From an uncultured Candidatus Poseidoniales archaeon (GTDB lineage Archaea; Thermoplasmatota; Poseidoniia; Poseidoniales; Poseidoniaceae), in contig CACODE010000001.1 of NCBI GenBank assembly GCA_902625885.1, forward strand, positions 26,004-90,003: a DNA stretch of 64,000 bases, given 5' to 3'. Under the pieces are notes generated by a model. That model was not told the DNA's origin. It was given only the letters and a program-made list of their open reading frames with translations, and ran no database searches. Position numbers and translations under genes: made by a program. Numbering within the stretch: position 1 is the first letter of the stretch; every line of letters starts with the position of its first letter. Shown here in pieces: positions 2,568 through 52,489 of this stretch.

Positions 2568-3776
2568 ATGGAGGGGTTAAGGGGCGTTGAGTACCTGCCA
2601 GAACCTTCCGACCGAAGGATTGTTTCGGCTGTCGACCCAACCGTGGTTGGTCACGAAAACGATTGGCGGTCGGAAACCATGGGCTGGGCACCGCTCTCGG
2701 TGGAACCCGTCCACCACTACAAACCTCAGCGATGGTCCATATCTGGCGTAGTGGCCTTTGCGTTACTCGTATCCTTGAGTTTGCTCATGTGGCAAAACCA
2801 GTGGCTTGTGGTTGAATTACCTGCGCCCAAATCCGAATGGGCCTTTGATGCATCGGGCATCAGGGACGTGCAGGAATCCGGGCTGAGCGGAGAAGGCGTG
2901 CGCGTCTGCATGGTTGACACAGGCGTTGACGGTTCTCACGAGGCGTTTGAGGGCGTGGAGATCGTCTTCAAAGATTTGATCGGGGCATCGCAAGAACCCG
3001 TTGACTACGGTTCGGTGGCTCATGGCACGCTGATGGCCGGTTTGCTCCTGTCCCAAGACACCGACCAAAGGGGGTCGGCACCCGATGTGTCGTTTGCCAT
3101 GGTCGCAGCCCTCCAAGACAACGGCGATGGGGAAAACGAGGGCAAGGACACCGACGTCGCTGATGCCATTCGTTGGTGCCAGTTTGATTTCCAAGCCGAC
3201 ATCATCTCGTTGTCCTTGGGTGGAAGCCAAGACACCAACGGGACGGAAGGCGACTCGTCATCAGCCACAAGACAGGCCACGGACGCAGGCATCTACGTCG
3301 TTGCGGCGGCCGGTAACGACGGTCTGGATGATGACGGCGATGTCGCATCGCCAGGCAGCGTTGATCTCGCCATATCCGTCGGGGCCACAACCCAGGGCGG
3401 CTCGGTTTGGCAAAACTCCTCGGTAGGGGCATCTTACGACAGGGAGGGGTTTCCTCGACAACATCCCAACATGAAACCCGAGGTTGTGGCTCCTGGTGAA
3501 CGCATCATCAGCACGGGTCAGGACAATCTGTGGTACTCGAGCAGCGGGACGTCCGATGCTACGGTGTTTGTGACCGGCGCTCTTGCGTTGATTCTCCAGG
3601 AAAACCCTCGGTTGAAAGCGCAGGCAAACGACGATTCTGCCTGCCTCGTAAAAGTGAAGCAAGCCCTCGTGAATTCAATGGCGGAAACGGCCGAAGGACA
3701 CGACACTCGTACGGGATACGGTCAGCTCGATGCAGCCGCATGGCTCAACGAAAGCCAGCAGATTGGCTCCTGTTAG
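2568..3776 (+). CDS. Subtilisin-like serine protease (peptidase S8), N-terminal signal-anchor
   Basis: Catalytic triad motifs in order: CMVDTGVDGSHEAF (Asp), HGTLMAG (His), GTSDATVFVTGALALI (Ser). Hydrophobic segment ISGVVAFALLVSLSLLM near N-terminus. ATG at 2568 chosen because the track start at 2430 overlaps the upstream gene; ATG 2679 is an alternative. Confidence 0.85.
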   Translation: MEGLRGVEYLPEPSDRRIVSAVDPTVVGHENDWRSETMGWAPLSVEPVHHYKPQRWSISGVVAFALLVSLSLLMWQNQWLVVELPAPKSEWAFDASGIRDVQESGLSGEGVRVCMVDTGVDGSHEAFEGVEIVFKDLIGASQEPVDYGSVAHGTLMAGLLLSQDTDQRGSAPDVSFAMVAALQDNGDGENEGKDTDVADAIRWCQFDFQADIISLSLGGSQDTNGTEGDSSSATRQATDAGIYVVAAAGNDGLDDDGDVASPGSVDLAISVGATTQGGSVWQNSSVGASYDREGFPRQHPNMKPEVVAPGERIISTGQDNLWYSSSGTSDATVFVTGALALILQENPRLKAQANDDSACLVKVKQALVNSMAETAEGHDTRTGYGQLDAAAWLNESQQIGSC

Positions 3777-3869: not shown

Positions 3870-3915
3870 TCGGCAAATATATTGATATTTTCGTCCTGTT
3901 TTGATATTCTTATGG
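3870..3915 (+). promoter_or_regulatory. AT-rich promoter region of the giant beta-helix gene with TATA-like elements and a TTGATATT direct repeat
   Basis: caaatatattgatattttcgtcctgttttgatattcttatgg. TTGATATT at 3882–3889 and 3901–3908. ttcttatgg resembles the ttcttatatgg element upstream of the 23S gene. Confidence 0.3.
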
Positions 3916-3975
3916 CGGCAGATGAGGCGCAGTATTATATTCGTGGGGTTCATGGACATAACAGGTGAATCTTTG

Positions 3976-6900
3976 ATGGAACGAAAGAATCAAGCAAAAT
4001 CGGTATCGCTGGTGCTGCTCTACATGCTGTCGCTTAGTTTGGCGATGGTGAGCGTGCCCTCTGCAATGGCCGTCAACGAGACAACTCAAGGCACGGTCAG
4101 CGGTACAGAGACGTGGTCTGGAACTATGAATCTGCAAGGGGACGTCACGGTCGCTGAGGGTGCCAAACTCATTGTTAATGCGGGCACGACCGTCAACATA
4201 CCGTTTGGAAAATTCATTGACGTCCGTGGCGCCATCTGCATCGGCGATACCGCATGCGGTGCAAGCGCAGGTTCTGCTTCTTCCCAGGCCAGATTCATCT
4301 GGTCGCTTCCTACCGACTACACCAAGGAAGGGCGCTGTGCCGCCGCCTTTGCGGACACCAATCTGGCGGTGAGTTCGGACGCAGCTTGCGGTTCAGGAAT
4401 GGTGATTCGCTCAACGATTGATCAAGCCATCACGTCGATCAATTACGCCCACTTTGAGAACGCCTACGGCTACCCGATTTACGTGGCGTCTCAGCAAAAC
4501 CTGCAGTACGGTGCGTTGATCTTTGACGGGTCAACGACAACCGCCACAGGGCTGACCTTCACCGACATCAACACCTCAAACGTTTTGGCCATTGATTTGG
4601 CTGCGCCGTTGCTTACGGATTCCACGTTTGAGCTTGGCGTGGACGGCCGGGGCTACAACGCAGCCGCCATTCGGGCTTACGATGCAGGTGCAGGTATCCT
4701 CTCCACCCTGCGAATCAGGAATTCTGAATTCACCGGAAACGATGCCGATTGCGGGCAACAGGGGGGTGGCCTTGGGGTTATTTCCATTGACAACTCCTAC
4801 GTGGACATGGACAACATCGACATCAGGGACAACAGCTACGGGATGTTTTTGAAATCCAGTTCTGGCAGTTTGACGAACTCCGAAATCAACGTGAAGTGTA
4901 ACGCCGTTGATACAAACTCTCTGAAAAAGACCGGCGATTTCGAGCACACCCTTGAGGTGAACAACAACATCATCACCACCTCAGAAGGCACTGGACTGAC
5001 AGCCTACGACGGTGCGAAAGTCTACGCTGAAAGAAACACCATATCCGGTGGTTCGGAAGGCGGCGGTGGTTCGGGTGTCGGTATCCGAAGTTCGGTTGTG
5101 GAACTCCACGAGAACACCATCGGACCTATAGGCGTGTGGAACGGCTTGTGGATTTACGGCACCTCCGATGTCATCGCTGAAAACAACACGATTCAGGACA
5201 CGGGCAAAGAACCCGTTCTCGTCGGTGAGTACCACTACCAAGACCAAGGCTGGCAAGTTCCTGCTCCAACGGCCGCCCGCATTTACCTGGCCAACAACGT
5301 CATCTCCAACGTGTCGGGCACCTGCAACTCTCAGATGTACGGCGGCGATTTCCAGTGCCCAGCCATCCACATCTTCCGATCGTCAGCGACCGTCGTTGAC
5401 AACGTCATTTCCGGCAACACGGGCGACATCATCCGCGCCAAAGGTTCGCTTGTGAACGTGCAGAGAAACGTCGGCGACTCGCAAGGCGGCTTTGCAGGAA
5501 ACGTCAGTGTTCACGACGACAATTACGGCAACAAATACGGCTCCATCGCCTACTTCTCAGGCAACACTTGGAGCAACGTCTCTCAAGTCTACAACGTGAC
5601 CGAATCAAGGGTGACCGTGCAATCCGAGCAAATCCCATCGCCGGGCTACGGTGAACTCTACCCGGTGAACATTGCATGGCTGGGCGCCGAATGTCCCTTT
5701 GTTCAGGACGAGTGTCTGCAACTGCCGGGGACCACCGTGCTCCCACCAAGAGACATGCCCCTCGCTTTGGAACTGGTCGAAAACGCCACCGTGTTTTCCT
5801 ATGCGGACCTGCAAAATTTCGACTCCTCGATGATTCACGTGCAGAATCAGAACACAGCGTGGGGTTCTCAGGTTCGAGAGGGTGAACTGGTCCGCTATCA
5901 GGTGAAAGCCAAGAATTCCAATGTTGAAGGCGCCACGGTCATCATCAAAGATTCCACTGGCTTGCCTCTCTACGAACTCCAGACGGATGCTTTCGGCTTC
6001 ACACCTCAAGTCTCGCTGCCTTCCGATTTCTTGCTTGACCGAAACTGGAACCACATTGTTGGTGACAAAAATGCAGCCATACCAGGCACCAACGACGGTA
6101 CTGGACAACCCATCACCGTCGATGAGGACTCGTGCGCTGACGGTATCGACAACGACGGGGACACGTACGTGGACGACGACGACGCGGACTGCACCAACGG
6201 CAGAGAGCGCCCGTTCTATTCTGTTGAGGCTTTCAAATTCGGAAGCGGTCGCGATGAACTTTCCTATGTCCTCACCGGGGCCGTTGACGATGTTATCAAC
6301 CTGGAGAACCTACGACCGAGCGTCTCTGTTAACGAGCCCGATGGCTACTCGTATGCGAGAACGGTTCGCATCACCGGTCAGGCTTGGGACGGAGCAAAAT
6401 GGCCGTACGCCAACGACAACACCGCTCAGCAAGCCCAGTTCGGACTTGTCAAGCGTGTAGAAATCCAACCACCCGGTTCAACCGACTGGTTCTACGCATC
6501 CGATGTTTCGGGAGCGAACGGAGCCATCACCATGCAGACCCATCCGTTCAAGGATTGGGTGTACGAGTGGGACGGTTCCGCGCACCCCGAGGGTGAAGGC
6601 GACATCACGTTCAGAATTCGCTCCTTTGACGGTTTGGATTATTCGCCCATAGAGGTGCGACAATACAAACTGAACCTGGTCGCACCAACATTGCTCGTGG
6701 ATGTCCCGACCGAAGGAAGCGTTCACACGACCGGTCGCGTGCTTTTCCAAGGAACGGCTTCGGACCCGTATCAGGGCACCTACGGCAGTGACGTGAAGCA
6801 GATCTGGTTCAATATTCAGGGACCTGGAACGACCCAGCAATTCTTCCAACAAGGCTCAACCAGCTGGTCCTACGAGTGGCTCGTTTCTGAATTGCCAACC

Positions 6901-8349
6901 GGAGACTACACCATCAAGGTCTGGGCCGCTGACAGTGACTTTTGCATCGAAGAACCGGTTGTCGAGGACGGCTGTGTGGTCGAGACGCGTACCATCACCA
7001 TCAACAACGACAACATTCCGCCAAACTTGCAACTTTCGTGGATAGGAGCTGAGGATCAATCCACCGGTGGCATCGATGGTGATACCATCAGGGCATCAAA
7101 GGAGACGAAAATCTTCGGCGTCGCCCGAGACATCGGTGGGTTTGTAACCCGGGTTGAGATTGAGATTACCGATTTGGCGAACGGTCTGGTGTTAAACGAT
7201 GGTCCGCTCCCGGTCACGAACCTTGCTCAAGATGGCTCATGGGTGGCCAACTGGGACACTTCAAAATTGATTCATGACAGCGTTTACTCCGTCGCCGTAC
7301 GAGCGTATGACGGTGATGACTATTCCGACACCATCACGTGGAGAATGACCATCAACAACCCACTCGATGCGGACAACATTGACCCCGTGTTTAACGAAAC
7401 GGGTTGGGTCGGCACGTGGACCATCTTCTGTGATGAACAATCGACCAACTTCGACCGCTGTGGCGGTGGTGTTTCGTTTGACCTAGCGGAATTCTTTGAA
7501 GACCCGGACGGCACGGGCGTTCCAGGAAACGACTTGGAATTCTATGTCTACGACGACGAGGCCACCATTGAAGACGACTTCTACGGGGACTTCATCACCA
7601 TCACGCCGCTTGGCGTCCTTACCTACGACCCAATGACGTACATGGCCCAAACAACCAGCAGCATTCCTGACTGGTCGCTCAACGGCGTCGTGCTCTATGC
7701 CCAAGACGATCAAGAATCCAAGGCGTACTCATTGAAGGTCAACTTCCTCGTTAGGGCGGTCTCCTTCTCCGTGGAGCGAGCCGATTCAGGTCCTATCACG
7801 GCCGACGACCCAGCGGAATTCCAAGGCGAAGGTCTACCTGGAAGCTTGGTCATCGCTCGATACGCAGACGGCAACGCCAAACTCAACTCCACGCGAGTTC
7901 TCGCCGACGGCTCATGGAGCATGCAGATCACCGCCAATCAGATGGTGGGTTCCGATGGCTCGAAGGACGTCATCTTCGAGATGGACGGGCAAGTGTATTC
8001 CTTTGCAGGAGAGACCGGGGACGCCACATTCTCATTGTCGGTCTCGAGCGGTGATGAAGGCGGTTTCAACATGGTGATTGTTCTCATTGTTCTTGGCGTC
8101 ATTGCCTTGCTGGCAGCAGGAGCGTTCTTCTTCATTGAATTCGAAGAGGTTCCGGACGAAGACGAGTTGACCAGCGACGATACCGAGCCTGAGGAAGACC
8201 CTTACGCTTGGGCGAAGGCTCGAGAAGCCGCCGCTGCACCTGAACCAACACCCGCCCCAGCCGCTTCTCAGCATCCGGGATGGTTGTGGGACCAGGCCAG
8301 CAACCAATGGGTTCCTGATCCGGATTACCAGCAACCACCGCAGCAGTGA
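3976..8349 (+). CDS. Giant (1458 aa) secreted right-handed beta-helix (pectin-lyase-fold-like) surface protein with Asp-rich Ca-binding-like insert, C-terminal TM anchor and acidic/Pro-rich cytoplasmic tail ending in a GW..QW motif
   Basis: ATG 3976 preceded by aggtga. Sec signal peptide MERKNQAKSVSLVLLYMLSLSLAMVSVPSAMA|VNE. Many NxxIxxN-type beta-helix rungs (NNTIQDTGKEPVL, NNVISNVSG, DNVISGNTGDIIRAKGS). CADGIDNDGDTYVDDDDADC cluster. C-terminal TM MVIVLIVLGVIALLAAGAFFFI, then EFEEVPDEDELTSDDTEPEED...APEPTPAPAASQHPGWLWDQASNQWVPDPDY. Confidence 0.8.
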   Translation: MERKNQAKSVSLVLLYMLSLSLAMVSVPSAMAVNETTQGTVSGTETWSGTMNLQGDVTVAEGAKLIVNAGTTVNIPFGKFIDVRGAICIGDTACGASAGSASSQARFIWSLPTDYTKEGRCAAAFADTNLAVSSDAACGSGMVIRSTIDQAITSINYAHFENAYGYPIYVASQQNLQYGALIFDGSTTTATGLTFTDINTSNVLAIDLAAPLLTDSTFELGVDGRGYNAAAIRAYDAGAGILSTLRIRNSEFTGNDADCGQQGGGLGVISIDNSYVDMDNIDIRDNSYGMFLKSSSGSLTNSEINVKCNAVDTNSLKKTGDFEHTLEVNNNIITTSEGTGLTAYDGAKVYAERNTISGGSEGGGGSGVGIRSSVVELHENTIGPIGVWNGLWIYGTSDVIAENNTIQDTGKEPVLVGEYHYQDQGWQVPAPTAARIYLANNVISNVSGTCNSQMYGGDFQCPAIHIFRSSATVVDNVISGNTGDIIRAKGSLVNVQRNVGDSQGGFAGNVSVHDDNYGNKYGSIAYFSGNTWSNVSQVYNVTESRVTVQSEQIPSPGYGELYPVNIAWLGAECPFVQDECLQLPGTTVLPPRDMPLALELVENATVFSYADLQNFDSSMIHVQNQNTAWGSQVREGELVRYQVKAKNSNVEGATVIIKDSTGLPLYELQTDAFGFTPQVSLPSDFLLDRNWNHIVGDKNAAIPGTNDGTGQPITVDEDSCADGIDNDGDTYVDDDDADCTNGRERPFYSVEAFKFGSGRDELSYVLTGAVDDVINLENLRPSVSVNEPDGYSYARTVRITGQAWDGAKWPYANDNTAQQAQFGLVKRVEIQPPGSTDWFYASDVSGANGAITMQTHPFKDWVYEWDGSAHPEGEGDITFRIRSFDGLDYSPIEVRQYKLNLVAPTLLVDVPTEGSVHTTGRVLFQGTASDPYQGTYGSDVKQIWFNIQGPGTTQQFFQQGSTSWSYEWLVSELPTGDYTIKVWAADSDFCIEEPVVEDGCVVETRTITINNDNIPPNLQLSWIGAEDQSTGGIDGDTIRASKETKIFGVARDIGGFVTRVEIEITDLANGLVLNDGPLPVTNLAQDGSWVANWDTSKLIHDSVYSVAVRAYDGDDYSDTITWRMTINNPLDADNIDPVFNETGWVGTWTIFCDEQSTNFDRCGGGVSFDLAEFFEDPDGTGVPGNDLEFYVYDDEATIEDDFYGDFITITPLGVLTYDPMTYMAQTTSSIPDWSLNGVVLYAQDDQESKAYSLKVNFLVRAVSFSVERADSGPITADDPAEFQGEGLPGSLVIARYADGNAKLNSTRVLADGSWSMQITANQMVGSDGSKDVIFEMDGQVYSFAGETGDATFSLSVSSGDEGGFNMVIVLIVLGVIALLAAGAFFFIEFEEVPDEDELTSDDTEPEEDPYAWAKAREAAAAPEPTPAPAASQHPGWLWDQASNQWVPDPDYQQPPQQ

Positions 8350-10892
8350 TGTTGGGAGGCATTGACATGGCCGCGCAGGCAAAACCGGGCGTTCAAGAGC
8401 GAATATTGCTCCATTTGTTGGATTATTCCGATTTTAAGGACAGCATAGAAGTCCCGTTTGCTTTGTCGCAAATGGGCATTGCAAACGCCGTCGCCATTGC
8501 GAGGTCAAACGTGCCCCGGGCCATTGCGGGCCTCAAGGAGCAAGGCATTCTTGTGGAAAGGCAAGCGCATGTCAAAGGGGTTTCACGCAAAAGAAAAGCC
8601 TACTTTCTCACCGACAGCGGCGTGTTGCTGGCAAGCGAGACTTGGGAACGGCTCTCTGAGTTCCCGGTCACGTGCGTCCTCGATGAGCAACCTGCCGTCT
8701 CAACCACGCTGGGAAGTGCGAAATCGGTGTTGCCGTTTGAGATGCGGCCGGTTGACATCATTCGGTACATCGATGAACACAACCGTCTGGACGTTCGCAA
8801 TTTATCGGCCGATCTGGTGGAGCGGGACCTGTCCAAACACGTTGAGAAACAACTCGTGACATCGCTTGCGGACCTGCCCCGTCTCCGGCATTTCTACGGC
8901 CGGGCTACGGAGCTGGACAACATGGTTAATTTGCTAGAGGCGAGAGCCACCACCTTGCTGGTTCCCGGCATTGCGGGTATCGGCAAAACGACCGTCGCTT
9001 CCAAGTTGATTGAGCGATTCATGCACCGGCGGAACCTGTTGTACCATCGATGTCAAGATTGGGAGGGCTCCCGTTCATTCTTCGAATCGGTTGCGGACTG
9101 GTTGGCGAGCATGGGCAATGCTGAGTTTTCTACCTACCTTGCAGCGACGCCTGTACCACAGCCCGCTGACGCAGCCCGGCTCTTGGTCGAAGCGCTTGAG
9201 GGCACTCCCTCGTTGTTGGTCATCGATGATTTTCACAAAGTGTCGGACACGGTGCTGCACCAGACGTTCCAAGCCATGTCGCTTGCGCTCCTTGGCAGCG
9301 AGGAGAAGATCGGTTTGGTCATTTTTTCACGTTCTTTCAAGCCGGTCGTGCCAACCAAGGACGCCGAGGGCAGAATTGCGAGTTTGGTCCTCCCGCTCGA
9401 TGGACTTGACCCAGAATCTGGAAGGAAATTGCTCACGAGTTTCGATTCCTTGGAAGACGAACAGTGGCTCCACATTCACGGGTTGTCAAGGGGCCACCCG
9501 CTGGTGCTTGAACTCATCAACCGTGGTGCGTCCGCAGGGGCTTTCCACGAGACGCTTGAGAACTACGTGACGGTCGAGATTTTCTCAAAATTGAGTGCGG
9601 AGCAGAAGCGGGTGTTGTCGGCACTCTCCGTGTTCAGGGAACCCGTTGAGCTCGAGGCGCTTGCCATGCAAAAATTGGACACCGATGAGCTTGACAGCTT
9701 GGTTGAGTCCGGCCTTGCTCGGCAAGCCGACTCTGAAACCTACGATGTCCACGATCTAATTCGCGAATTCTTGCTACGCAGCCTTTCGGTTGCGCTCAGG
9801 GAGGAGTTCCATGGAAAATGTGTTGAATGGTACAAAAAACAGTCCCAATCTCAAGACATCCTCATCGAGCTCGTCTACCACACCATCAAGTCCGGTCAGT
9901 TTGACGAAGCTTCAGCCCTCGTCGTCAAAGAAGGCAGGCAATTGGTTTCTCAGGGTCACATGGAACTGCTTGGTTTGATTGAGCAGATTGAAACGATGGA
10001 TTTGGAAGCCGATGTTGTCGTCGGCATGGCCCAATTGCAAGGCGATATTCTTGCGCTCCTTGGGCGCCTCCCAGAAGCCGAGGAAGTGCTTGGCAACACC
10101 CTTGACCTGGCAAAAAAGGCAACCAACGAACAGGTACAGGCGGAAATACTCTCCTCGCTTGCAGACGTCAGCCGAAAACAAGGCGACAGCGACCTCTCGC
10201 TCAGCCGCCACAAAATGGCATTGAAACTCTACATCTCGCTCGGTCAAGCAAGGTGGGCGGCACGCACCTACAACAACATCGGATACCTTCTGCGGAGAAA
10301 AAACGAGAAATCCAAGGCTCTCGAAGCCTATGCTGAAGTTGAATCAATTTTGCAAGATTCTGACGACGAGGACCTAATACAGAGCCAAATCACGTTGGCG
10401 CGATCGCTGATTGAGCTCGGTGAAGTGGACCGTGCGCGTGAGCACGCCATGGCCTCTCACGAGCGAACCTCAGAAATGGGCGATGCCGTCATGCACGCAA
10501 GGGCTCAAGCCGTTCTGGGCAGGTATTACTCGAAAGTAGAGCAGTCAGAGTTGGCCCTTTTCCATTACACCGAGGCTCTTGAGGCCATGAACGAGGCCGG
10601 CGACGTGCAGTCGTTGGTGGAGATCACCATGCTCCTTGGCGAGGTGTTGCACGATGCAGGTCGCGTTGACGAGGCTGTCGAACATTACGGACAGGCTTTG
10701 GTCCTGGCCGAAGCGAACGACTTGCGGATGCAGATAGGTGAACTGCTCACCCGACTTGGTGGGGTAGCCCCGGACCGTCAGGGCAGGATGGAATACTTGC
10801 AAAGGGCGTTAACCGTGTTCAGGGAACTCGGTGCGAAAACCAAGATGCGAGAGGTCCAAGCCATGGTTCACAGAGCGGTCATGAGTCGATGA
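8346..10892 (+). CDS. STAND-class signal-transduction ATPase: N-terminal winged-helix DNA-binding domain, NB-ARC/AP-ATPase P-loop NTPase, C-terminal TPR array (AfsR/MalT-like transcriptional regulator architecture)
   Basis: wHTH: ERILLHLLDYSD...ALSQMGIANAVAIARSNVPRAIAGLKEQGILVERQAHVKGVSRKRKAYFLTDSGV. Walker A LLVPGIAGIGKTTVASKL; Walker B LLVIDDFHKV; sensor-like GLVIFSRS; NB-ARC hallmark GxP motif HGLSRGHPLVLELI. Multiple C-terminal TPR-like helical repeats (ARTYNNIGYLLRRKNEKSKALEAYAEV, ALFHYTEALEAMNEAGD, AVEHYGQALVLAEAND). The GTG start at 8346 overlaps the upstream stop (GTGA); ATG 8349 and 8367 are alternatives. Confidence 0.8.
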   Translation: MMLGGIDMAAQAKPGVQERILLHLLDYSDFKDSIEVPFALSQMGIANAVAIARSNVPRAIAGLKEQGILVERQAHVKGVSRKRKAYFLTDSGVLLASETWERLSEFPVTCVLDEQPAVSTTLGSAKSVLPFEMRPVDIIRYIDEHNRLDVRNLSADLVERDLSKHVEKQLVTSLADLPRLRHFYGRATELDNMVNLLEARATTLLVPGIAGIGKTTVASKLIERFMHRRNLLYHRCQDWEGSRSFFESVADWLASMGNAEFSTYLAATPVPQPADAARLLVEALEGTPSLLVIDDFHKVSDTVLHQTFQAMSLALLGSEEKIGLVIFSRSFKPVVPTKDAEGRIASLVLPLDGLDPESGRKLLTSFDSLEDEQWLHIHGLSRGHPLVLELINRGASAGAFHETLENYVTVEIFSKLSAEQKRVLSALSVFREPVELEALAMQKLDTDELDSLVESGLARQADSETYDVHDLIREFLLRSLSVALREEFHGKCVEWYKKQSQSQDILIELVYHTIKSGQFDEASALVVKEGRQLVSQGHMELLGLIEQIETMDLEADVVVGMAQLQGDILALLGRLPEAEEVLGNTLDLAKKATNEQVQAEILSSLADVSRKQGDSDLSLSRHKMALKLYISLGQARWAARTYNNIGYLLRRKNEKSKALEAYAEVESILQDSDDEDLIQSQITLARSLIELGEVDRAREHAMASHERTSEMGDAVMHARAQAVLGRYYSKVEQSELALFHYTEALEAMNEAGDVQSLVEITMLLGEVLHDAGRVDEAVEHYGQALVLAEANDLRMQIGELLTRLGGVAPDRQGRMEYLQRALTVFRELGAKTKMREVQAMVHRAVMSR

Positions 10893-10893
10893 A

Positions 10894-11373
10894 TCATTGA
10901 ACAGCCTGCGGTCTGTCAAGCGACAAAAACGTGACGCCATCTTCATGCACCACCCAAAGACGCTCAACGCCGGCGAGTGGCACCCGCCCTTCGTGAGTGC
11001 CGGCACCCGTTCCTGAAAGGGAGACTTCCATGTCAAGCGGCCCTCCTTCATCAACCAGTTTCAGCGTGGTTTCGTGCAGTTCAACCCAAAACAGCGATTC
11101 ATCGGCTTCCGTGGGCCGCCAGGCGATCTCTTCGGCATAGGACACGTTGCCGCCCAGGCGACTCGCCTCGTCCGCTCGCTCTACAGCGGCTGCGATGTCG
11201 TCCATGTTGGCGCGAACGGCTTCTTCGTTCCATCGCAGTCGGGTGTTCGTTTCGATGTCCCACGCCCATACACTGAACATGCTCATCAGCAACACGCCAA
11301 GCAGGAACGTGAAGATGTAACCAAGTTCCGTCGCCGCAGCACGGGTGTCCCTTGCGAGCGAATGTTGCCTCAA
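10894..11373 (-). CDS. Small pilin-like protein (class-III / type-IV-pilin-like N-terminus), minor-pilin candidate
   Basis: N-terminus MRQHSLARDTRAAATELGYIFTFLLGVLLMSMFSVWAW has a basic segment, small residues, a Glu near +4/+5 of the putative cleavage site and a ~20-residue hydrophobic helix. 4-nt overlap with upstream gene. Stop codon abuts the stop of the convergent STAND gene (TGAaTCA). Confidence 0.5.
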   Translation of the reverse strand: MRQHSLARDTRAAATELGYIFTFLLGVLLMSMFSVWAWDIETNTRLRWNEEAVRANMDDIAAAVERADEASRLGGNVSYAEEIAWRPTEADESLFWVELHETTLKLVDEGGPLDMEVSLSGTGAGTHEGRVPLAGVERLWVVHEDGVTFLSLDRPQAVQ

Positions 11374-13052
11374 ACCAACACCTCCCGGGTCGTCACATCA
11401 AGCGATGCCATCTGAAGCGTGAATTCAACCACTTCTCCGTTGGTATGCCATACCGCTTCTGAGGTTCCATAACTTGGGTCGGGAACCCAGCCAACATAGT
11501 CGGTGAGCAGATCAAGCCTGCCCGGGTACACCGTCCAGTCTTCACTTGCTTCCAAGCCAACACCGGCATCATCGGCAATGGCCGCACCGTAGGGCTCGCT
11601 CCAGCCTCGGCGAACTTCGTAAGCCGGTGTCGAGGCCAGTGATGTTCGGTGCACCATTTCGATGTCAAGTTCCAGTTCACCTGCACCCGTTTCGCTACCT
11701 GCGGTAGGGTGAAGCGCCGGAATGGTGGCAGCAAATCGAGGGCCTGGGCCGCCCCTATCGGAAGGCGGTACGACAACATAGGCGTTGAATTCGGGGTGGT
11801 TGGTGACCACGGCCCCTCCGCTGAAGGCCACTTCCATGCCGTCAACCGATGACGAAAATTGGTAGGACAACCTAGACAGGTGGAACGCCCACACGGTCCC
11901 TATGGAGCTGTGCGTTGAGATACCGTCGCTGCCGAGCACGTCGATGCTCATGCTCGCTGGGTGCCGTCCATCTCTCCACGCTTGGTTCGTGTCGATTTCG
12001 CCTCGGCCACCCATTCGCTCCCATGGAAGGTCGGTCATGATCCATCCACTGGCCTGCGTTCCAACGCTTGTGCATCGCTCGGCGCCATCGTGGGAGAGGT
12101 GGAGCAGACCATTGTTCCCTCCATGCCTTACAGCGCGCAGCGGATGTCCATCTTCAACGCGTAGGGTGGTGTTGCCCTCTGGCAGGGTGATGACGCGGTG
12201 ATTGATAGCGTCAAGAAACACGCCAGACGCCTCGACAGCGCCCGAGAGGTTCCATGTTGAGGTGTAGCCTGCGAGCCGATACAGGAGCGTCTCGGTGGAT
12301 GAATTGTCGCGATTGTCGTAGGTGAACAGCCCGCCGGATAGCGAACCCGTGTCGTCAGCGGGCAGGAACATGCTGCCGTCGACCGCATCCGTGGTTGAGG
12401 CGCTGTTGTCGGCGGCCCAAGTGACCATGACGTCTCCGTCGGCGTCGATGGTCAATGCTTCACCGTCCGTTGTTGGAGGCCAATTGATTTGTTCAACGGC
12501 CCCGCTCGCCACGGAAATACCGCCACCGCGCCACGTCAGGGTGACAACGTCATCTCCCGGGTTGGTGAACCGCAGCATGCCGTTCATTGTCGGCGGCAAG
12601 AAGGCATGCCCGAGGTAGGCACCGGTCATCGAGGGCCAAGCGGTCATCCCTGCCTCGCTGGTCGTGTTGAGTTTCAACATCAATCGTGCTGGCGTGCTCG
12701 TGGTGATGTGGGCGACCGTTGGTTCCGTGAGGTTGATGTCATGACTGAAACTCACGCCGGTCCTTGCCAGACCGCTTGGTGTGGCGTAATGTATGGACGT
12801 CGCCTCGTTCACAGTGAGGTGAATTTGGTTTGAGCGATCGCTGAGCAATTCAAACGCGTGGGTCCCCGCAGGCAGCGGTATTGACCAGTCATGGCCACGT
12901 TTGTCGACAGGCTCTGGCGAGTTTGGCAACACGTAGCTGGCACCGCCATCGCCCACGTGTCCAAACACGGTCAGCGCATGGCTTGAGGTCAACGTGGCCG
13001 CACCGTAAGCCGACACGTCAACAACACCCATGTCGTCAATTCTCAGCGACAA
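11370..13052 (-). CDS. 560-aa beta-rich protein of the pilin-like cassette, no recognisable signal peptide (tip-adhesin / PilY1-like role is speculative)
   Basis: TTG start overlapping upstream gene by 17 nt; overlaps downstream gene by 4 nt. S/T/G-rich composition typical of extracellular beta proteins. No TM or signal peptide at the annotated N-terminus. Confidence 0.5.
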   Translation of the reverse strand: MSLRIDDMGVVDVSAYGAATLTSSHALTVFGHVGDGGASYVLPNSPEPVDKRGHDWSIPLPAGTHAFELLSDRSNQIHLTVNEATSIHYATPSGLARTGVSFSHDINLTEPTVAHITTSTPARLMLKLNTTSEAGMTAWPSMTGAYLGHAFLPPTMNGMLRFTNPGDDVVTLTWRGGGISVASGAVEQINWPPTTDGEALTIDADGDVMVTWAADNSASTTDAVDGSMFLPADDTGSLSGGLFTYDNRDNSSTETLLYRLAGYTSTWNLSGAVEASGVFLDAINHRVITLPEGNTTLRVEDGHPLRAVRHGGNNGLLHLSHDGAERCTSVGTQASGWIMTDLPWERMGGRGEIDTNQAWRDGRHPASMSIDVLGSDGISTHSSIGTVWAFHLSRLSYQFSSSVDGMEVAFSGGAVVTNHPEFNAYVVVPPSDRGGPGPRFAATIPALHPTAGSETGAGELELDIEMVHRTSLASTPAYEVRRGWSEPYGAAIADDAGVGLEASEDWTVYPGRLDLLTDYVGWVPDPSYGTSEAVWHTNGEVVEFTLQMASLDVTTREVLV

Positions 13053-13605
13053 CGAGAGTACCTCTTCTCCCCCCCTCCACCAGCATCACGTCAATCGGTC
13101 CTAGGGGCATTGCTAGGCCGGGGGTGACGGTGAAACGCACACGGTCCAGAACAGCGTCGATGGTGTAGTGATAGGGGCGGTCTGGCCCCAAGCGAAGGTC
13201 GGTAATGCAAACGGCCTCAACGAAACTTTCCGGGTGACGAATTTCGAGTTGGTCGTCAAAGTCAAGCGCCCCGCGCGCCCTCAAACTCATGTCCTCGACC
13301 CATGTTGCAGAATACCACATACCGCCTCGCAAGCTGTCCCAAACAAGCTCTCCGTCCACGGGGATGAGTGTGCTATGCGCTGAATCTCCTGGCATACCTC
13401 GCTCGCTTAGGGCGGACGTTTCATGAGCGAGCAGCGCCATTTGGGCTGACATATCGTGGCGTTCGACGGAGCCTTCCAATTCTTCGATGACGGGCATCAT
13501 GGAGATCATCATCAAACCGATGATGGACAGCACGCCGCCGAACAAGAGCACGGTGGCAACGGCCGCCGATACCCCCTCTTCATCTCGGCGCAGGGTTCCG
13601 TTCAC
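13036..13605 (-). CDS. Pilin-like protein with archaeal type-IV pilin (DUF1628-like) N-terminal domain
   Basis: MNGTLRRDEEG|VSAAVATVLLFGGVLSIIGLMMISMM follows the charged – G/A – VS – hydrophobic-helix pattern of haloarchaeal PilA-type class III signal peptides (compare ..DRAVSPVIGVILMVAITV..). 4-nt overlap with upstream gene. Confidence 0.55.
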   Translation of the reverse strand: MNGTLRRDEEGVSAAVATVLLFGGVLSIIGLMMISMMPVIEELEGSVERHDMSAQMALLAHETSALSERGMPGDSAHSTLIPVDGELVWDSLRGGMWYSATWVEDMSLRARGALDFDDQLEIRHPESFVEAVCITDLRLGPDRPYHYTIDAVLDRVRFTVTPGLAMPLGPIDVMLVEGGRRGTLVVAEN

Positions 13606-14687
13606 GAACTCACCTCCACCCGTTGAACGTCCACCTCAAAGTAAAGTGGAAACGCCTGTGAGGACACGCTGAATCCGTCGGCTCCGCTGGCTCTTTCGTA
13701 CGGTGAAAAACCGATGAAGGTGTCCAACGTTCCCGCTGACCTCTCAATGGTGTAGTCAGCCAGCCAGTTGTTGTGGTACTGGGGCGATATCACGTCGTGG
13801 AGGGCGTTGTGCACGTTGAAGTTCACGTTGTAGGCTCGTCCACTGAACAAGGTGAGCGGGCCCTGCGACACAAACTGCATACCGACGTTGGAGCCGGAAC
13901 CAATGCTGCCGTTGGCGATGATGTCCGTGAGCAGGATGGAAAGACGTAACTCATCGTTTGCCATGCGGTCAAACTCCACCAGTGGCATGGCGCTCACCTC
14001 CCACGCCTCGTTGGGAAACCGTTCGGCTCGGGCGTTGTTCATGAGGACGATTTGGTGTTCACCTTGCCCAAGAGACGTGGTGATTTGGAGCCCTGAGACG
14101 GTCCAGGACACATGCCGATGCAGCGGTTCGTTATCGGCACCGTAGACGGTGACGGATATCCAGTGAGAGGCGCTTGCGTTGTGGGTTACAAACACCTCGA
14201 GGTGGCTTACCGGAAGTTGCTGTTCGTAGACCACACCGGGGGACTCCACACGAATGCTGCGGGCGGTTTCGTTCGCGGTCAGAACACCGAAGGTGGTGTC
14301 GTTGACCTGGCGTATGGCGATCCGTTCACCGTCCGTCAAATCCGCCGCAATGGTCCAGTGCTCGATGTTCTGTACCGAGCGAATTGCTGTGGATTGAATG
14401 GCCAGCGTGTTCCTGAAACCTGTGCCTTCAGGAGCGTTGCCCGCCACCTCGAGCCGGTCCTCAATTCGCTCAGCGAGGCCGGTGGCAGAATTCCAGTTGG
14501 TGTTGTCCTCAAAATCCGAGAGGTACGGGTTGAGAAAAATCCAGACTCCGCCCATGATGGTGATGACCATGGCCAGCAACATCACCACGCCCAAAACCTC
14601 GCTTACAGCACGCTCATCTCCCACGCGGCGGTGAGACGCAAACTGCACGCTCGCTCGGTTCACAAGGTTGACACAACCCCGTATCAT
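13602..14687 (-). CDS. Larger pilin-like protein (class III signal peptide, DUF1628-like H-domain) with ~300-aa C-terminal beta domain
   Basis: N-terminus ..HRRVGDERAVSEVLGVVMLLAMVITIMGGVWIF closely resembles the (D/E)RAVSPVIGV.. pilin motif. An in-frame GTG giving MGDERAVSEV.. would produce a canonical short class III leader. The track start MIRGCVNL.. may be too far upstream. Confidence 0.55.
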   Translation of the reverse strand: MIRGCVNLVNRASVQFASHRRVGDERAVSEVLGVVMLLAMVITIMGGVWIFLNPYLSDFEDNTNWNSATGLAERIEDRLEVAGNAPEGTGFRNTLAIQSTAIRSVQNIEHWTIAADLTDGERIAIRQVNDTTFGVLTANETARSIRVESPGVVYEQQLPVSHLEVFVTHNASASHWISVTVYGADNEPLHRHVSWTVSGLQITTSLGQGEHQIVLMNNARAERFPNEAWEVSAMPLVEFDRMANDELRLSILLTDIIANGSIGSGSNVGMQFVSQGPLTLFSGRAYNVNFNVHNALHDVISPQYHNNWLADYTIERSAGTLDTFIGFSPYERASGADGFSVSSQAFPLYFEVDVQRVEVSS

Positions 14688-15532: not shown

Positions 15533-15718
15533 GCGAACACAAAGCGAGCATCGCGGAAGGAACTTGAATACACCGCTTCTTGAGGAAAAGAGCGGCTGTT
15601 TTTCAGCCAAGAACTGCGTCATCAGTCGCATTTTGTATGAACAATGTTCCATCAACATCATAAGCAATTTGAACAGAGAAAATACAAGCGAGGCTGCGCC
15701 TTCGCAGACGGTGTCTTG

Positions 15719-21519: not shown

Positions 21520-24500
21520 GTGGGAAACATGCACGGTGGCGGCAAGCAACGGTTCCATACCCGAGCCGTGTTTTTCCTTCTCGTCTCCATGATGGTTTTC
21601 ACCCCGCTCGGTCCACTAGCAGAGGTGATGATATCGGAGGCTGAGGCTGCGTCAGGAACCAGGCACGTCTACGAGTTCAGCGACGGTTCAGTAGAACACA
21701 TCGCCCTGTATCAAGGAGCAAATCCAGACATGGGAGCCGCTGTTTCCCTACCCAGAGGGGCCCTCGTAACAGACGTGAGCATGACCCTATCGGGGGCATC
21801 AGCAACCGGCTGGTCACAAATCGTCACAGACGACAGGGATCATTGGATTCGGGGTACAGAGGCTGATATTGACGACCGGTCGGGCGACTTAACCCTCGCC
21901 ATGAGCAACGTGAGTCGAAACTTCTTGCCTCATGCAGGGGATGCTTATGTTGACCCCAATTCAGACGCCTGGCTCGACAACGGCTCTTACGCCCTGCGAC
22001 AGCCGCACACCTCAAACGCTACCGAAGCGTTGTATTCCCAACAATTGACCAAAACTTCGTCAAGTTTCATGGCGCAAAGCCAAGGAGCCATCCTGAAACA
22101 TCACGACTGGCTGTTCTTGTCAACATGGTCTTCGTCTACCTTCAGCAACATTGTTGAACGGTTGTACCCCAACAACGCTTCTCGTGAATCGGTCATCACC
22201 TTGGACAAAGCAGCGTGCACCCTCCCGCAGAAACACTCCTCCTCTTACTACGGCTACTACGGTTTCCGAGACTGGACGATCACCGACGATGAACGCCTTT
22301 TCGGCATCCTTTCAGGCTACAGGTACACCTACGGTTCCACCGCTCCGGTGAATTACCATCGCGTCATGGAGATGGACATCTCGAGAGACGATACCTGGAC
22401 ATGCATTGATTCCTACGATATCTCGCCATCCGTCGGTGAGTACACCGGCATCGCTTACGACCGTCAGACGGGCAAAGTTTGGGTGGCCCACAACGCCATG
22501 AATCGACTCTATGCTTACGAATTTGAGAGCGACGGGACGTCAACGTACACGCGCAGTTCGGACTTTTACAGCTACACCTCGGCCAGTGGCTCGAGCTGGG
22601 AATGCGGAGGCACATACGGGAGCAGTTCCAAACAAATGCTGCGAGGCCTAGAAGTAAACGGTTCAACATTTTACATGCGTTGTCAAGAAGACTCCCCCTA
22701 CAACGACCGGGATCAACTAGAAGCTTGGTCGGTATCGGGGAGTTCTTCGGCGCTGATTCCTGAGTCCACGACAAAACAAATTTCTCGCTTGGGCTACGGT
22801 TTGCAGTTCGACGGTGAACGCTTCGTGACCGTTGACTGTGGCTACTCAACATGGTCGGGCGCCACCCTCTACTACCGTGAATTTGGAACGGGGTGGATGT
22901 ACGAAACCACACCCGCTCCCGGGACCACGACGTGGTACGGCGAAGTCGTTCACTCCGGCGACGAGGTTCTCTCCGCAAACGTGGAAACGTATTGGTCAGC
23001 AGCGTCCATTGGCGACCGCGTGGACTACTGGATTTCAGCAGACAACGGGACCCATTGGGAGGAGGTCGAATCCGAATCCACCATACACTTTGACCATCCC
23101 GGTAAGGAACTGATTTGGAAAGCGCAACTCATCGGCTCCACGGCCGTATCGTGGTGGGTTGACGTTGAATATTCCACCGCTTACGAAACCAGCGGGAATT
23201 GGTTGTCACCGTCGTTCAACACGGGAACAAAAGTCGGGAAAGTCCGACCCCAATGGATTGCTGACGCACCGTCCCAGACCTCCATTGAGGTCAAGGTCTC
23301 CAACGACAACGGCACCACGTGGCTTGACGCTTCAAACAATCAGGAAAGGAGTTTCTCCACCCAAGCGGCTGGCAACACCCTTCGTTACGCCGTGTTTTAC
23401 GAAACAACGGACGCCAGTGTTTCTCCGTCGATTGACGAGTTTGTTCTGGAGTATGAGGAAGGCTACCCAGACCGCCCGATGCTCGATGTTGGGGCCGACG
23501 GCACGTACGACTGGGAGGCGGATATTTTCCTCAACGAATCTTCCGTCGTCGCTTCCGACGACTCCCCGGTTGGTGCTATCGTCAAGAAAGCCCCCACGTT
23601 GGTGGCCGCCTTCAACGACCACGTTCCCGAAAACGGCGACGGTTTCGTCGACATCCCTATCGCTGTGAAAGCTGCGAGTTCCGGACGGGTCAAAATTTCA
23701 AACATCGACATCACGTACGCCATGCAAACAAGAGCCGTAGGGGCTTCGTTTGAGGGTGGTCTTGCAGCTCCGGATGGCTTGTACCGCAACTTCATCACCC
23801 GAATCGCTCCGGGGGACGAGGTTGACCACGTGACGAAGGCCGTGATCGCCATCGAACACGCTCATGGCGACAACCCGAACTTCACATGGCAACGAGGTGA
23901 CAGTTGCACCGTGAATTCCGATGCCGGTGGCATCGTTGTCTTTGACGCTGCCAACTGCACTTCTGTGGAGGATGCAGATGGCGTGGTTTCTGTCTGGATG
24001 CCAACCAAAGTCAACTGGTCGTGGGATGACGAGCGCAGCACGGAAGCCATTGTTTCCGTCGAGGACGACCTAGGCATTGCCGTGGACCAGTGGACCACTC
24101 CCGACATGGACCTCGTCGTTGAAAACGACATTCAACTGGACGGTTTGAGGGTCTGGGAAGAAACGGGGCGGCAGTTGTTCCCGATGGATTGGGTCCGAGG
24201 GGGCTTTAACATCAGTTTCAGCGGCTCCATTCATTTCCAAGATTCACAATTGATGCCGCCTGCAGGCAGTTTTTCCCTGCGCGTGCTTGGCCAAAACGTA
24301 ACCTACGACGGCGATCCAATGGGGGAACCTGTCGTCCTTTACGAAGAGGCCAACCCTGCATTCGGTGCTTACAACATGACGTTTGTCTCCCCTGTTGAAT
24401 CAGAGCCCGGTGGCATGATTTTCTACGTGCAGGCGGTCGATCTCGAAAACGGCTCAACTTATACAAACCCGAACTACAACACCATCCGACTCATCTTGGA

Positions 24501-35663: not shown

Positions 35664-35746
35664 GACCCTGCGTGCCGGCGGACGCTTTCAAATCCACCCT
35701 TTCTTTGGTTCAAACTCTTCAAGAAGCCACGCCTACACGAGGGTTC

Positions 35747-38056: not shown

Positions 38057-38115
38057 TTCAACTGTTGGAACGAACACCTTCTTGAGGCGGGTGTTCCTGC
38101 TAAGCATGAACCAAC

Positions 38116-39049: not shown

Positions 39050-39415
39050 GTGCGTCGACGCATCATGGCGATTGAGCGCTTGTTGACCGGCAGCATCCAG
39101 AACCAAATACAGGAATTGATGTCCACGGAAGATTTGGTCATCGAGGCTTTTCGAGATCTCGTGAAGGATGAACTCAAGAGTCACATAAGGGCCAAGGTCG
39201 ACGAGGACCCAGAGCTCAAAGCCGAAATAAAGGAAGCCGTGGCCTACTATTTCCACTCAAAAGCTCGAAGCATTTACGCCGAACTCAAGGCTACGAGAGC
39301 GGCAACGAGGCTTGGGCTTCGTCTTCTCCCTGATGAACTTCAGGGCGAGGTTGGTGAAGCCTTGGTGACCTTGTTCGAAAAGGAGCTCGGGGCACTTCTT
39401 GAGAAGGCACTTTGA
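39050..39415 (+). CDS. Hypothetical small all-helical acidic protein (121 aa)
   Basis: Protein-like, Lys/Glu-rich coiled-coil-like composition. Co-oriented 10 nt after the upstream gene. Confidence 0.4.
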   Translation: MRRRIMAIERLLTGSIQNQIQELMSTEDLVIEAFRDLVKDELKSHIRAKVDEDPELKAEIKEAVAYYFHSKARSIYAELKATRAATRLGLRLLPDELQGEVGEALVTLFEKELGALLEKAL

Positions 39416-51423: not shown

Positions 51424-52461
51424 ATGGTCATCAAAGTGGCAATCAACGGCTATGGAACAATCGGCAAGCGCGTCGCGGACGCCGTTGATGCACAGGACGA
51501 CATGGAAATCGTTGGCGTGACCAAAACCCGCCCTTCGTTTGGTTGCGATTTGGCCGTTCGAAAAGGCTACCCTCTTTACTGCACGTTCGACGAGAAAGAG
51601 AAAATTGCAGCGTTTGCAAAGGCTGGATACACCTGCCATGGTGGCTTGACCGATTTGTTGGACGTTGCCGACGTTGTGGTCGACTGTTCTCCGGGAAAAG
51701 TCGGTGCAGCGAACAAATCAGCGTACGTTGATGCGGGTGTCAAATTTATTTTCCAAGGCGGTGAAAAGCACGATATGGTTGGCATGTCCTACACGTCATC
51801 CGCCAATCATGAGGCCAACCTCAACGCCGCAGGAACCCGGGTTGTTTCGTGCAACACCACCGGTCTCTCGCGTACCCTCGTGCCGCTTTACGAGCATTGT
51901 GGGTCGCTCAAAGTTGAGTGCACGATGATTCGACGAGCTGCCGATCCTGGCGATTCGAAAAAGGGCCCCATTAACGCCATCAAACCCGTTCTCAAGGTGC
52001 CCTCTCACCACGGCCCTGACGTGATGACCGTCAAGCCCGAAATCGATATCAATTCCATGGCTGTAGCGGTCCCAACCACCCTGATGCATTGCCACTCCAT
52101 CGTCGCCTTCCTCCCCGAAGGCCACGGCTTAACCACGGCATCCGTGTTGAAGTTGTGGGCCGAGCATCCTCGCATCATCATCATGAACGGTGGAGAAACC
52201 AACATCACAACGACCGCCGAAGTGATGGAATACGCCAGGGACATTGGAAGAAAATGGGGCGATTTGCACGAGATTTTCGTTTGGGAAGACGGCGTGAAAC
52301 TGGACGGGAACACCCTGTATTATTTTCAGGCCATCCATCAGGAATCCGATGTTATTCCAGAAAACATTGACGCCATTCGTGCGCTGATGGGAACGGAATC
52401 CGATTGGCGTGTCTCGGTTGCCAAGACCGATAAAGCCATTTTTGCCTACAACGGTTTGTGA
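51424..52461 (+). CDS. gap: Glyceraldehyde-3-phosphate dehydrogenase, archaeal type II
   Basis: MVIKVAINGYGTIGKRVADAV (NAD-binding GxGxxG). Conserved archaeal GAPDH blocks (SCNTTGL, catalytic Cys region). The track ORF from 51007 is 5'-over-extended. Confidence 0.9.
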   Translation: MVIKVAINGYGTIGKRVADAVDAQDDMEIVGVTKTRPSFGCDLAVRKGYPLYCTFDEKEKIAAFAKAGYTCHGGLTDLLDVADVVVDCSPGKVGAANKSAYVDAGVKFIFQGGEKHDMVGMSYTSSANHEANLNAAGTRVVSCNTTGLSRTLVPLYEHCGSLKVECTMIRRAADPGDSKKGPINAIKPVLKVPSHHGPDVMTVKPEIDINSMAVAVPTTLMHCHSIVAFLPEGHGLTTASVLKLWAEHPRIIIMNGGETNITTTAEVMEYARDIGRKWGDLHEIFVWEDGVKLDGNTLYYFQAIHQESDVIPENIDAIRALMGTESDWRVSVAKTDKAIFAYNGL

Positions 52462-52489
52462 ATATCAAGGCTCTTCCACGAGCGCAGGT

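Follow-up and report, generated by a model that had tools for sequence, protein, structure and literature searches.

The closest described relative of the regulator considered here is PH0952 of Pyrococcus horikoshii (PDB 6MFV), a putative transcription factor of the STAND class with a TPR sensor (Lisa et al. 2019, PMC6468293). MalT of Escherichia coli, the archetypal STAND transcription activator, has a TPR-like sensor, depends on ATP, is gated by an inducer and oligomerises (PMC6468293, PMC10427625), and GutR of Bacillus subtilis and AfsR of Streptomyces are non-immune STAND transcription regulators (PMC13581612, PMC10936776). The structure of PH0952-type regulators has been solved, but they have no known inducer, target or biological role. 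Here, we describe a locus in which the gene for such a regulator lies directly downstream of that for a giant surface protein. It was found in a 64,000-nt stretch of DNA (hereafter, the window) from an uncultured Candidatus Poseidoniales archaeon (GenBank assembly GCA_902625885.1, contig CACODE010000001.1, positions 26,004 to 90,003), with a G+C content of ~55% that is even along its length and an archaeal 23S rRNA gene at its end. The close homologs of its proteins carry the label Candidatus Poseidonia (Marine Group IIa). The Poseidoniales (Marine Group II) are uncultured archaea, among the most abundant in the surface ocean, whose surface proteins are believed to serve in attachment to particles and in the use of polymers. 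The locus pairs a PH0952-type regulator with a specific surface protein throughout this order and offers candidates for both a peptide ligand and an operator.

A PH0952-type STAND protein and its giant neighbor

The STAND gene (8367..10892, + strand) encodes 841 residues from a conserved ATG. A phmmer search matched residues 170-512 to PDB 6MFV with E = 8.7e-30, unbroken over NBD-HD-WHD (residues 9-330 of 6MFV), and a second, weaker segment aligned in the TPRs. The protein has 1) an N-terminal winged helix-turn-helix (wHTH) domain (residues ~9-96; 8391..8654), 2) a NOD composed of NBD, HD and WHD (residues ~170-470; 8874..9776), which also matches Pfam AAA_16, 3) an arm/HD2 (residues ~471-560; 9777..10046), delimited by alignment to PH0952 and the domain map in PMC6468293, and 4) a TPR sensor (residues ~561-841; 10047..10889) detected as four stretches by Pfam TPR_12 (E = 2e-22). 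In the family alignment, the NOD carries the signatures of a STAND ATPase: a Walker A motif of the GxxxxGK[ST] type (GIAGIGKT, residues 201-208; 8967-8990), a Walker B motif of the hhhhDD type (LLVIDD, 283-288), the GxP motif (GHPL, 376-379) and the WHD histidine (VHD, 461-463), with G201, G204, G206, K207, D287, D288, G376, P378 and H462 all invariant.

The N-terminal domain was assigned by structure; Pfam HTH models gave only sub-threshold hits on the protein (e.g., HTH_Crp_2). AlphaFold2 modeled residues 1-175 with a predicted local distance difference test (pLDDT) of 82.5 (~90 for the wHTH) as helix-helix-helix-strand-strand-helix followed by a small alpha/beta module, and the best Foldseek matches of the wHTH were MarR/PadR regulators (ZitR, MepR, AdcR; probability 1.0), many of which have been solved with DNA. 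The wHTH is the best-conserved domain of the protein, with 47 of 95 columns invariant across the order, and the arm/HD2 is the least conserved part (conservation 0.51); among the TPRs, conservation is highest in the C-terminal repeats. Since hydropathy reveals no hydrophobic segment, the protein is not membrane-bound. The wHTH-NOD-TPR architecture of the original prediction was thus borne out, and its NB-ARC label holds in a loose sense only: ~30%-identical family members match PF00931, but the window protein does not at E<=0.01. We therefore filed it as a PH0952-like STAND rather than under the NB-ARC Pfam family.

Like PH0952, to which it is ~30% identical, the protein has an N-terminal wHTH (ArsR/MarR-like) as putative effector, then the NBD-HD-WHD NOD, and a C-terminal TPR after the arm; the two share an archaeal origin and the prediction that they are transcription factors. 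It differs by the extra small alpha/beta module between wHTH and NOD and by its conserved giant neighbor, PH0952 having no reported link to a surface protein (PMC6468293). GutR and AfsR also combine an N-terminal DNA-binding domain, an NB-ARC-type NOD and TPRs, but they are bacterial, use other types of DNA-binding domain (SARP/OmpR-like in AfsR), respond to small molecules or phosphorylation and have no membrane protein partner encoded upstream; the AfsR model matches the window protein in the TPRs only. MalT, by contrast, binds DNA with a C-terminal LuxR-type HTH. Membership of the MalT/LuxR family was rejected, because the NCBIfam MalT model scores 46.5 bits against a cut-off of 537 bits, over the TPR part only, and the HTH is N-terminal; the match to TPR_MalT is weak. 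A profile-free exhaustive search retrieved 2,439 cluster representatives of the STAND family (461 at E<=1e-30), most of them full-length, ~30% identical and including the wHTH. These findings identify a PH0952-family STAND, predicted to be an ATP-driven, ligand-gated transcription factor with a putative DNA-binding wHTH.

The gene upstream (3976..8349, + strand; open reading frame (ORF) 3901/3976-8349) encodes a giant protein of 1,457 residues when translated from ATG 3976, one fewer than the 1,458 first claimed, and a Shine-Dalgarno-like GGTGA (3964..3968) stands 7 nt before this ATG and is kept in relatives as GGTG/GAGG. In 19-mer windows, the protein has exactly two hydrophobic segments, one within an N-terminal signal peptide (residues 1-32; 4072 marks the first nucleotide after it, the peptide spanning 3976..4071), which reads MERKNQAKS, hydrophobic core, AMA, and the other forming a single C-terminal transmembrane helix (residues ~1364-1387; 8065..8136). 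A type-I membrane topology is predicted from this pair of segments, with the 70-residue C-terminal tail (residues 1388-1457; 8137..8346), which is acidic and Pro/Ala-rich, placed in the cytoplasm. The first ~510 residues after the signal peptide (residues ~33-542; 4072..5601) belong to the class of right-handed parallel beta-helices with stacked three-stranded coils: an AlphaFold2 model of residues 33-620 shows short stacked strands over ~510 residues (pLDDT 83; predicted template-modeling score 0.80), and Foldseek retrieved right-handed beta-helix proteins only (AlgE4 epimerase, tailspikes, PL6 lyases and PfbA), with weak matches that hold at the level of fold (best E ~1e-4). PF13229 is carried by orthologs; in the window protein it stays below Pfam significance, and Pfam gives Ig-like domains only, among them a Big_7 domain (residues 904-982; 6685..6921) detected on a sub-sequence with E = 4.7e-6 and 27.6 bits against a cut-off of 24.1. 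The claim of a secreted, membrane-anchored beta-helix giant was therefore upheld, and we consider the protein a candidate type-I membrane-anchored surface glycoprotein. It has its fold in common with beta-helix surface proteins such as the adhesins PfbA and Ag43, polysaccharide lyases and epimerases, and phage tailspikes, but at TM-scores of 0.3-0.47 and ~10% identity no catalytic family can be assigned, and it adds Ig-like domains, a membrane anchor and a conserved cytoplasmic tail.

How widespread is this pairing? We scanned one genome per GTDB species, which yielded 73 Poseidoniales loci and 7 remote Thermoplasmatota loci, and mapped synteny by tblastn. Upstream synteny could be read in 71 of the 73, the other two having <50 nt of flank. 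In all 71, from both Poseidoniaceae and Thalassarchaeaceae, the order is AglB/STT3-fused giant, S8 subtilase, giant and STAND, with the giant ortholog directly upstream of the STAND gene on the same strand; metagenomic contigs agree with this block. Giant orthologs measure 1,410-1,530 residues and are present in all Poseidoniales loci. Identity to the window ranges from 46 to 93% for STAND and falls to 33% for the giant. The rest of the neighborhood is not frozen in this way, because the convergent pilin-like cassette and the metallo-beta-lactamase gene that follow in the window are absent from most Thalassarchaeaceae (Marine Group IIb, MGIIb), where the next giant comes ~1 kb after the STAND gene. 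With 71 of 71 loci from two families, the pair is not a chance adjacency. The prediction that a giant always lies upstream thus held for the orthologs and did not extend to the STAND family at large: the remote members inspected (25-34% identity) lie in unrelated contexts, so the association is specific to the Poseidoniales ortholog group.

Of three inspected loci from other Thermoplasmatota, two have a different arrangement of a membrane protein followed by STAND. In L082 (9198-12550) and L086 (9302-12565), a homolog with 25-31% identity comes directly after a small protein with a single transmembrane segment and a cytoplasmic DUF835, at a distance of 26 and 0 nt, respectively. In L088, the upstream ORF is uncharacterized (228 aa), and in all three loci a convergent gene for proteasome-activating nucleotidase (PAN) follows the STAND homolog. 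We rejected a membrane protein upstream of PH0952-like STAND as a general rule, two DUF835 loci being too thin a basis when other distant homologs have none.

The cytoplasmic tail of the giant contains a near-invariant Trp-rich motif, HPGWLWDQASNQWVPDPDY (8272..8328, + strand), with the consensus [HY]PGW-x-WD-x5-W[VI]P(D/E). A regular expression, GW.W[DN].{3,7}W, gave 79 matches in the six-frame translations of the loci (~1.7 Mb), and every one is the C terminus of a giant ortholog directly upstream of a STAND gene; no other protein in these loci or in the 64-kb window, where the giant gives the single occurrence, has the motif. The rest of the tail is low-complexity and variable. Retention of a linear motif throughout an order, in a predicted cytoplasmic tail, implies a cytoplasmic partner.

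Two other giants of the window (21520-26937 and 52409-57496, + strand) end with a common cytoplasmic motif of their own, LPxGWTxxQWxxYGxxW (26872-26937 and 57437-57496), which differs from the PGWxWD-x5-W motif of the STAND-linked giant. It may be a general trait of this organism that its giant surface proteins have conserved, Trp-rich C-terminal tails.

Literature searches that covered the envelope clusters and promoters of Poseidoniales as well as STAND regulators brought up no report of this pair or of the candidate operator described below. The regulator itself adds a member to a family of known structure; its order-wide partnership with a giant bearing an invariant tail motif, and the candidate operator, appear unreported in the literature searched.

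Start codon, spacer and promoter elements

The original prediction had the two genes translationally coupled, with the stop codon of the giant overlapping a GTG start (GTGA) of an 848-residue STAND. As letters, GTG 8346 does overlap TGA 8347-8349 and opens the longest ORF, which is a matter of ORF geometry. The evidence against it as a start is fourfold: 1) 120 of 120 listed database homologs measure ~841 aa, which corresponds to a start equivalent to ATG 8367, 2) in L007, a relative with 90% identity, this GTG does not share the reading frame of STAND and is followed by a stop, 3) the spacer between stop and ATG measures 9-105 nt in ~75 orthologous loci (~13 nt in L025, from coordinates), with overlap in none, and 4) many orthologous loci have no in-frame start at all 5' of the conserved ATG. 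GTG 8346 is therefore not the true start, and translational coupling through a GTGA overlap was rejected.

From the conserved ATG, the spacer in the window is 17 nt (8350..8366), with GGGAGG at 8354-8359, 7 nt before ATG 8367; relatives have a Shine-Dalgarno-like GAGG/GGTG 5-12 nt before the STAND ATG. We detected no T-run or AT-rich box in these 17 nt, and a terminator scan at the junction found no T-rich hairpin, sigma-70-type promoter and intrinsic-terminator models being uninformative for an archaeon. Since the spacer is this short, carries a Shine-Dalgarno-like motif and leaves no room for a promoter, the simplest and most likely reading for Poseidonia, the genus of the window, is that one transcript serves both the giant and STAND. 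Genera with longer spacers differ. When the spacer measures at least 40 nt, 36 of 40 distinct loci have a TTGAR element in it, and in 29 of those 36 it lies 20-28 nt (peak 23-25 nt) before an in-frame start codon. In these 40-105 nt spacers, TTGAR is conserved, looks like a separate promoter and suggests a leaderless STAND mRNA, being placed as one would expect of an archaeal TATA-like element that drives such a transcript. Because of this promoter-like element, co-transcription is not a conserved requirement, and an obligate bicistron across the order is not supported.

A longer form of the element, CTTCTTGAR, occurs four times in the window against 1.05 expected (15576-15584, +; 35718-35726, -; 38078-38086, +; 39395-39403, +), all of them sense-oriented and in 5' flanks of ORFs. 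In other genera, the related AACATT(A/C)TTGAR precedes the STAND start at a constant distance. CTTCTTGAR-type elements may be a promoter element of Poseidoniales.

Upstream of the giant, a block GAGGCGCAGTATTATATTCG (3925..3943, + strand) with a TATA-like TATTATAT is near-invariant in 17 aligned intergenic regions of Marine Group IIa (MGIIa, Candidatus Poseidonia) and is the probable core promoter of the giant gene. Upstream of it stand two direct repeats, TTGATATT, 19 nt apart (3882-3889 and 3901-3908, + strand), which match TTGATAY and form a candidate activator-binding array. They are the sole such pair in the window (0 expected). Orthologous loci have two to five copies at -136/-117/-94/-75 from the giant ATG, i.e., with a spacing of 19/23/19 nt, and TTGATAY reaches a density of 14.5 per kb in the intergenic region between subtilase and giant compared to 0.64 per kb elsewhere in the loci (~22-fold). 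As to signs of a wider regulon, no TTGATAY array was found in the window or the loci beyond the giant promoter. Direct-repeat arrays upstream of a core promoter are used by oligomerising activators such as MalT or AfsR, and direct-repeat binding has been described for AfsR (PMC10936776).

A regulator dedicated to the envelope locus, and alternatives

The architectures, the conserved adjacency, the tail motif and the repeat array are observed; DNA binding, target promoter, co-transcription and ligand we infer. The order-wide pairing suggests a regulator wired to the cell envelope, and an envelope-linked regulatory module is plausible. Our preferred reading, to which we give a probability of about 0.5, is that STAND is dedicated to this envelope locus, as a transcription factor of the PH0952 type that depends on ATP and is gated by an inducer. 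If it resembles MalT, GutR and AfsR and follows the PH0952 structure, it would rest as a closed, ADP-bound monomer shut by arm/TPR contacts. An inducer on the TPR/arm would open it and let it oligomerise, and the oligomer would contact DNA via several wHTH domains and control transcription. The most likely target would be the giant's own promoter, with its two to five TTGATAY repeats upstream of a TATA-like box. In Poseidonia, where STAND is probably co-transcribed with the giant, this would amount to autoregulation. The best candidate for the input would be the invariant cytoplasmic tail of the giant, or something assembled on it. A functional parallel for reading the state of an envelope component through a regulator is MalT, which binds asymmetric boxes arrayed upstream of promoters and is held inactive by MalK, a transporter ATPase, and by MalY.

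Several observations weigh against such a dedicated role, and they are also what the strongest alternative draws on, namely that the synteny is inherited without any functional link and STAND regulates unrelated or global targets beside a conserved envelope gene. First, many genera with longer spacers have their own promoter-like TTGAR ~23-25 nt before the STAND start. Second, many MGIIb genera have no TTGATAY array upstream of the giant but a palindrome GAGCCTACGGCTC or reversed boxes instead, and yet the STAND wHTH is nearly invariant across the order whether the array is present or absent. It follows that the array can be assigned to STAND only tentatively, and it may belong to another factor. 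The recognition helix gave no signal either way when compared with the TTGATAY boxes for co-variation, the wHTH being essentially invariant. Third, remote STAND homologs (25-34% identity) are not linked to giants and have varied contexts, such as adjoining a ribulose-phosphate epimerase gene or divergent from PKD/FG-GAP giants. Finally, conserved gene order within a single order can partly reflect inheritance. Against inheritance alone speak the adjacency, strand and order kept in 71 of 71 species from two families while flanking genes come and go, the very short giant-STAND spacers, and the absence of promoter room in the spacer of the window's genus. On balance, we regard synteny without function as possible, though less probable than a dedicated regulator.

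In the MGIIb loci L056, L057, L067, L068, L071 and L081, a conserved perfect palindrome, CGAGCCTACGGCTCG, lies ~60 nt upstream of the giant ATG and just upstream of a TATA-like CCCTATGATTAAATC. The palindrome lineages of MGIIb suggest a different or additional regulator.

A more specific form of the dedicated-regulator reading is a one-step transmembrane module, in which the giant tail (PGWxWD-x5-WVP) would be the ligand, or a sequestering anti-activator, of the STAND TPR/arm. An ATP-driven oligomeric activator on the TTGATAY array would then directly register whether the giant has bound a ligand, been cut by the neighboring subtilase, been glycosylated or been mis-assembled. This form, which parallels the action of MalK and MalY on MalT, is doubtful at present, and less probable than inherited synteny.

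The tail motif could also be read differently, with the TPR-STAND not primarily as a transcription factor but as a cytoplasmic scaffold for assembly or quality control of the giant and its cluster (secretion, glycosylation and anchoring) that docks on the Trp-rich tail. TPR domains commonly bind C-terminal peptides, the invariant tail implies a cytoplasmic partner, and AglB and a subtilase are encoded in the cluster. A scaffold would, however, sit poorly with an N-terminal wHTH that is the best-conserved domain and has a DNA-binding MarR/PadR fold, and with the description of the PH0952 family as putative transcription factors (PMC6468293), which makes it improbable. An antiviral, Avs-like STAND whose TPRs recognize a viral protein is very unlikely: the STAND+TPR architecture and weak PADLOC matches to a generic TPR model and to PDC-S73 are its only marks, whereas PADLOC gave no match to an Avs model, the effector is a wHTH rather than a nuclease or protease, and the gene is single-copy, fixed in position and 46-93% identical across the order, as in a core genome and unlike variable defense islands, so that we rejected the defense-system reading.

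For the dedicated regulator, binding of the tail to the TPRs, binding of the wHTH to the repeats and inducer-dependent oligomerisation can all be tested in vitro without cultivation and, if they hold, would show how Poseidoniales regulate their envelope. If the tail acts on the sensor as proposed, the PH0952 family would gain its first physiological input and its first target, and control of the MalK/MalT type would have a counterpart among archaea, in the planktonic ones that are most abundant in the surface ocean. If the link is one of synteny only, what is left is the ordinary annotation of a known protein family.

Flanking genes

Pfam, the gene calls of relatives and synteny identify the two genes upstream of the pair. 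The first (32-2503, + strand) runs off the left edge of the window and encodes, within it, the C-terminal end of a protein of ~3,200 aa with an AglB/STT3 fusion; in relatives, it combines an STT3/AglB oligosaccharyltransferase domain, CarboxypepD_reg-type repeats and a C-terminal transmembrane anchor, and throughout Poseidoniales its gene immediately precedes the block of subtilase, giant and STAND. The second (~2568-3776, + strand) encodes the S8 subtilase.

Downstream, a convergent pilin-like cassette (10894..14687, - strand) comprises ORFs of 159, 560+189 and 361 aa, recognized by class-III-signal-like N termini and a weak match to DUF7289; it lies outside the conserved core, and we found no link to an archaellum operon in the rest of the window. 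As predicted, STAND runs stop-to-stop into it, with stop codons at 10890-10892 (+) and 10894-10896 (-, ORF 10894-11373) that are 1 nt apart. The transcripts of STAND and of the 159-aa ORF must therefore terminate inside each other's gene, an arrangement that allows transcriptional interference. In L001, STAND and the convergent pilin-like gene overlap by 4 nt. The ORFs at 11370-13052 (-, 560 aa) and 13036-13605 (-, 189 aa) overlap in different frames and correspond to a single gene of 736-744 aa in relatives, which points to a frameshift near 13036-13052, i.e., a pseudogene or an assembly error.

Next to the cassette lies a metallo-beta-lactamase-fold gene (14720-~15600, - strand), whose orthologs have a Pfam match of the Anti-Pycsar Apyc1 type. 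Since the longest ORF there (486 aa) runs into the start of the next giant gene, the protein is probably ~270-330 aa long, as in relatives. Finally, two loci (L012 and L045) with the full Poseidoniales synteny come from metagenome-assembled genomes labeled Verrucomicrobiales and Salinimicrobium and are probably mis-binned contigs in public records.

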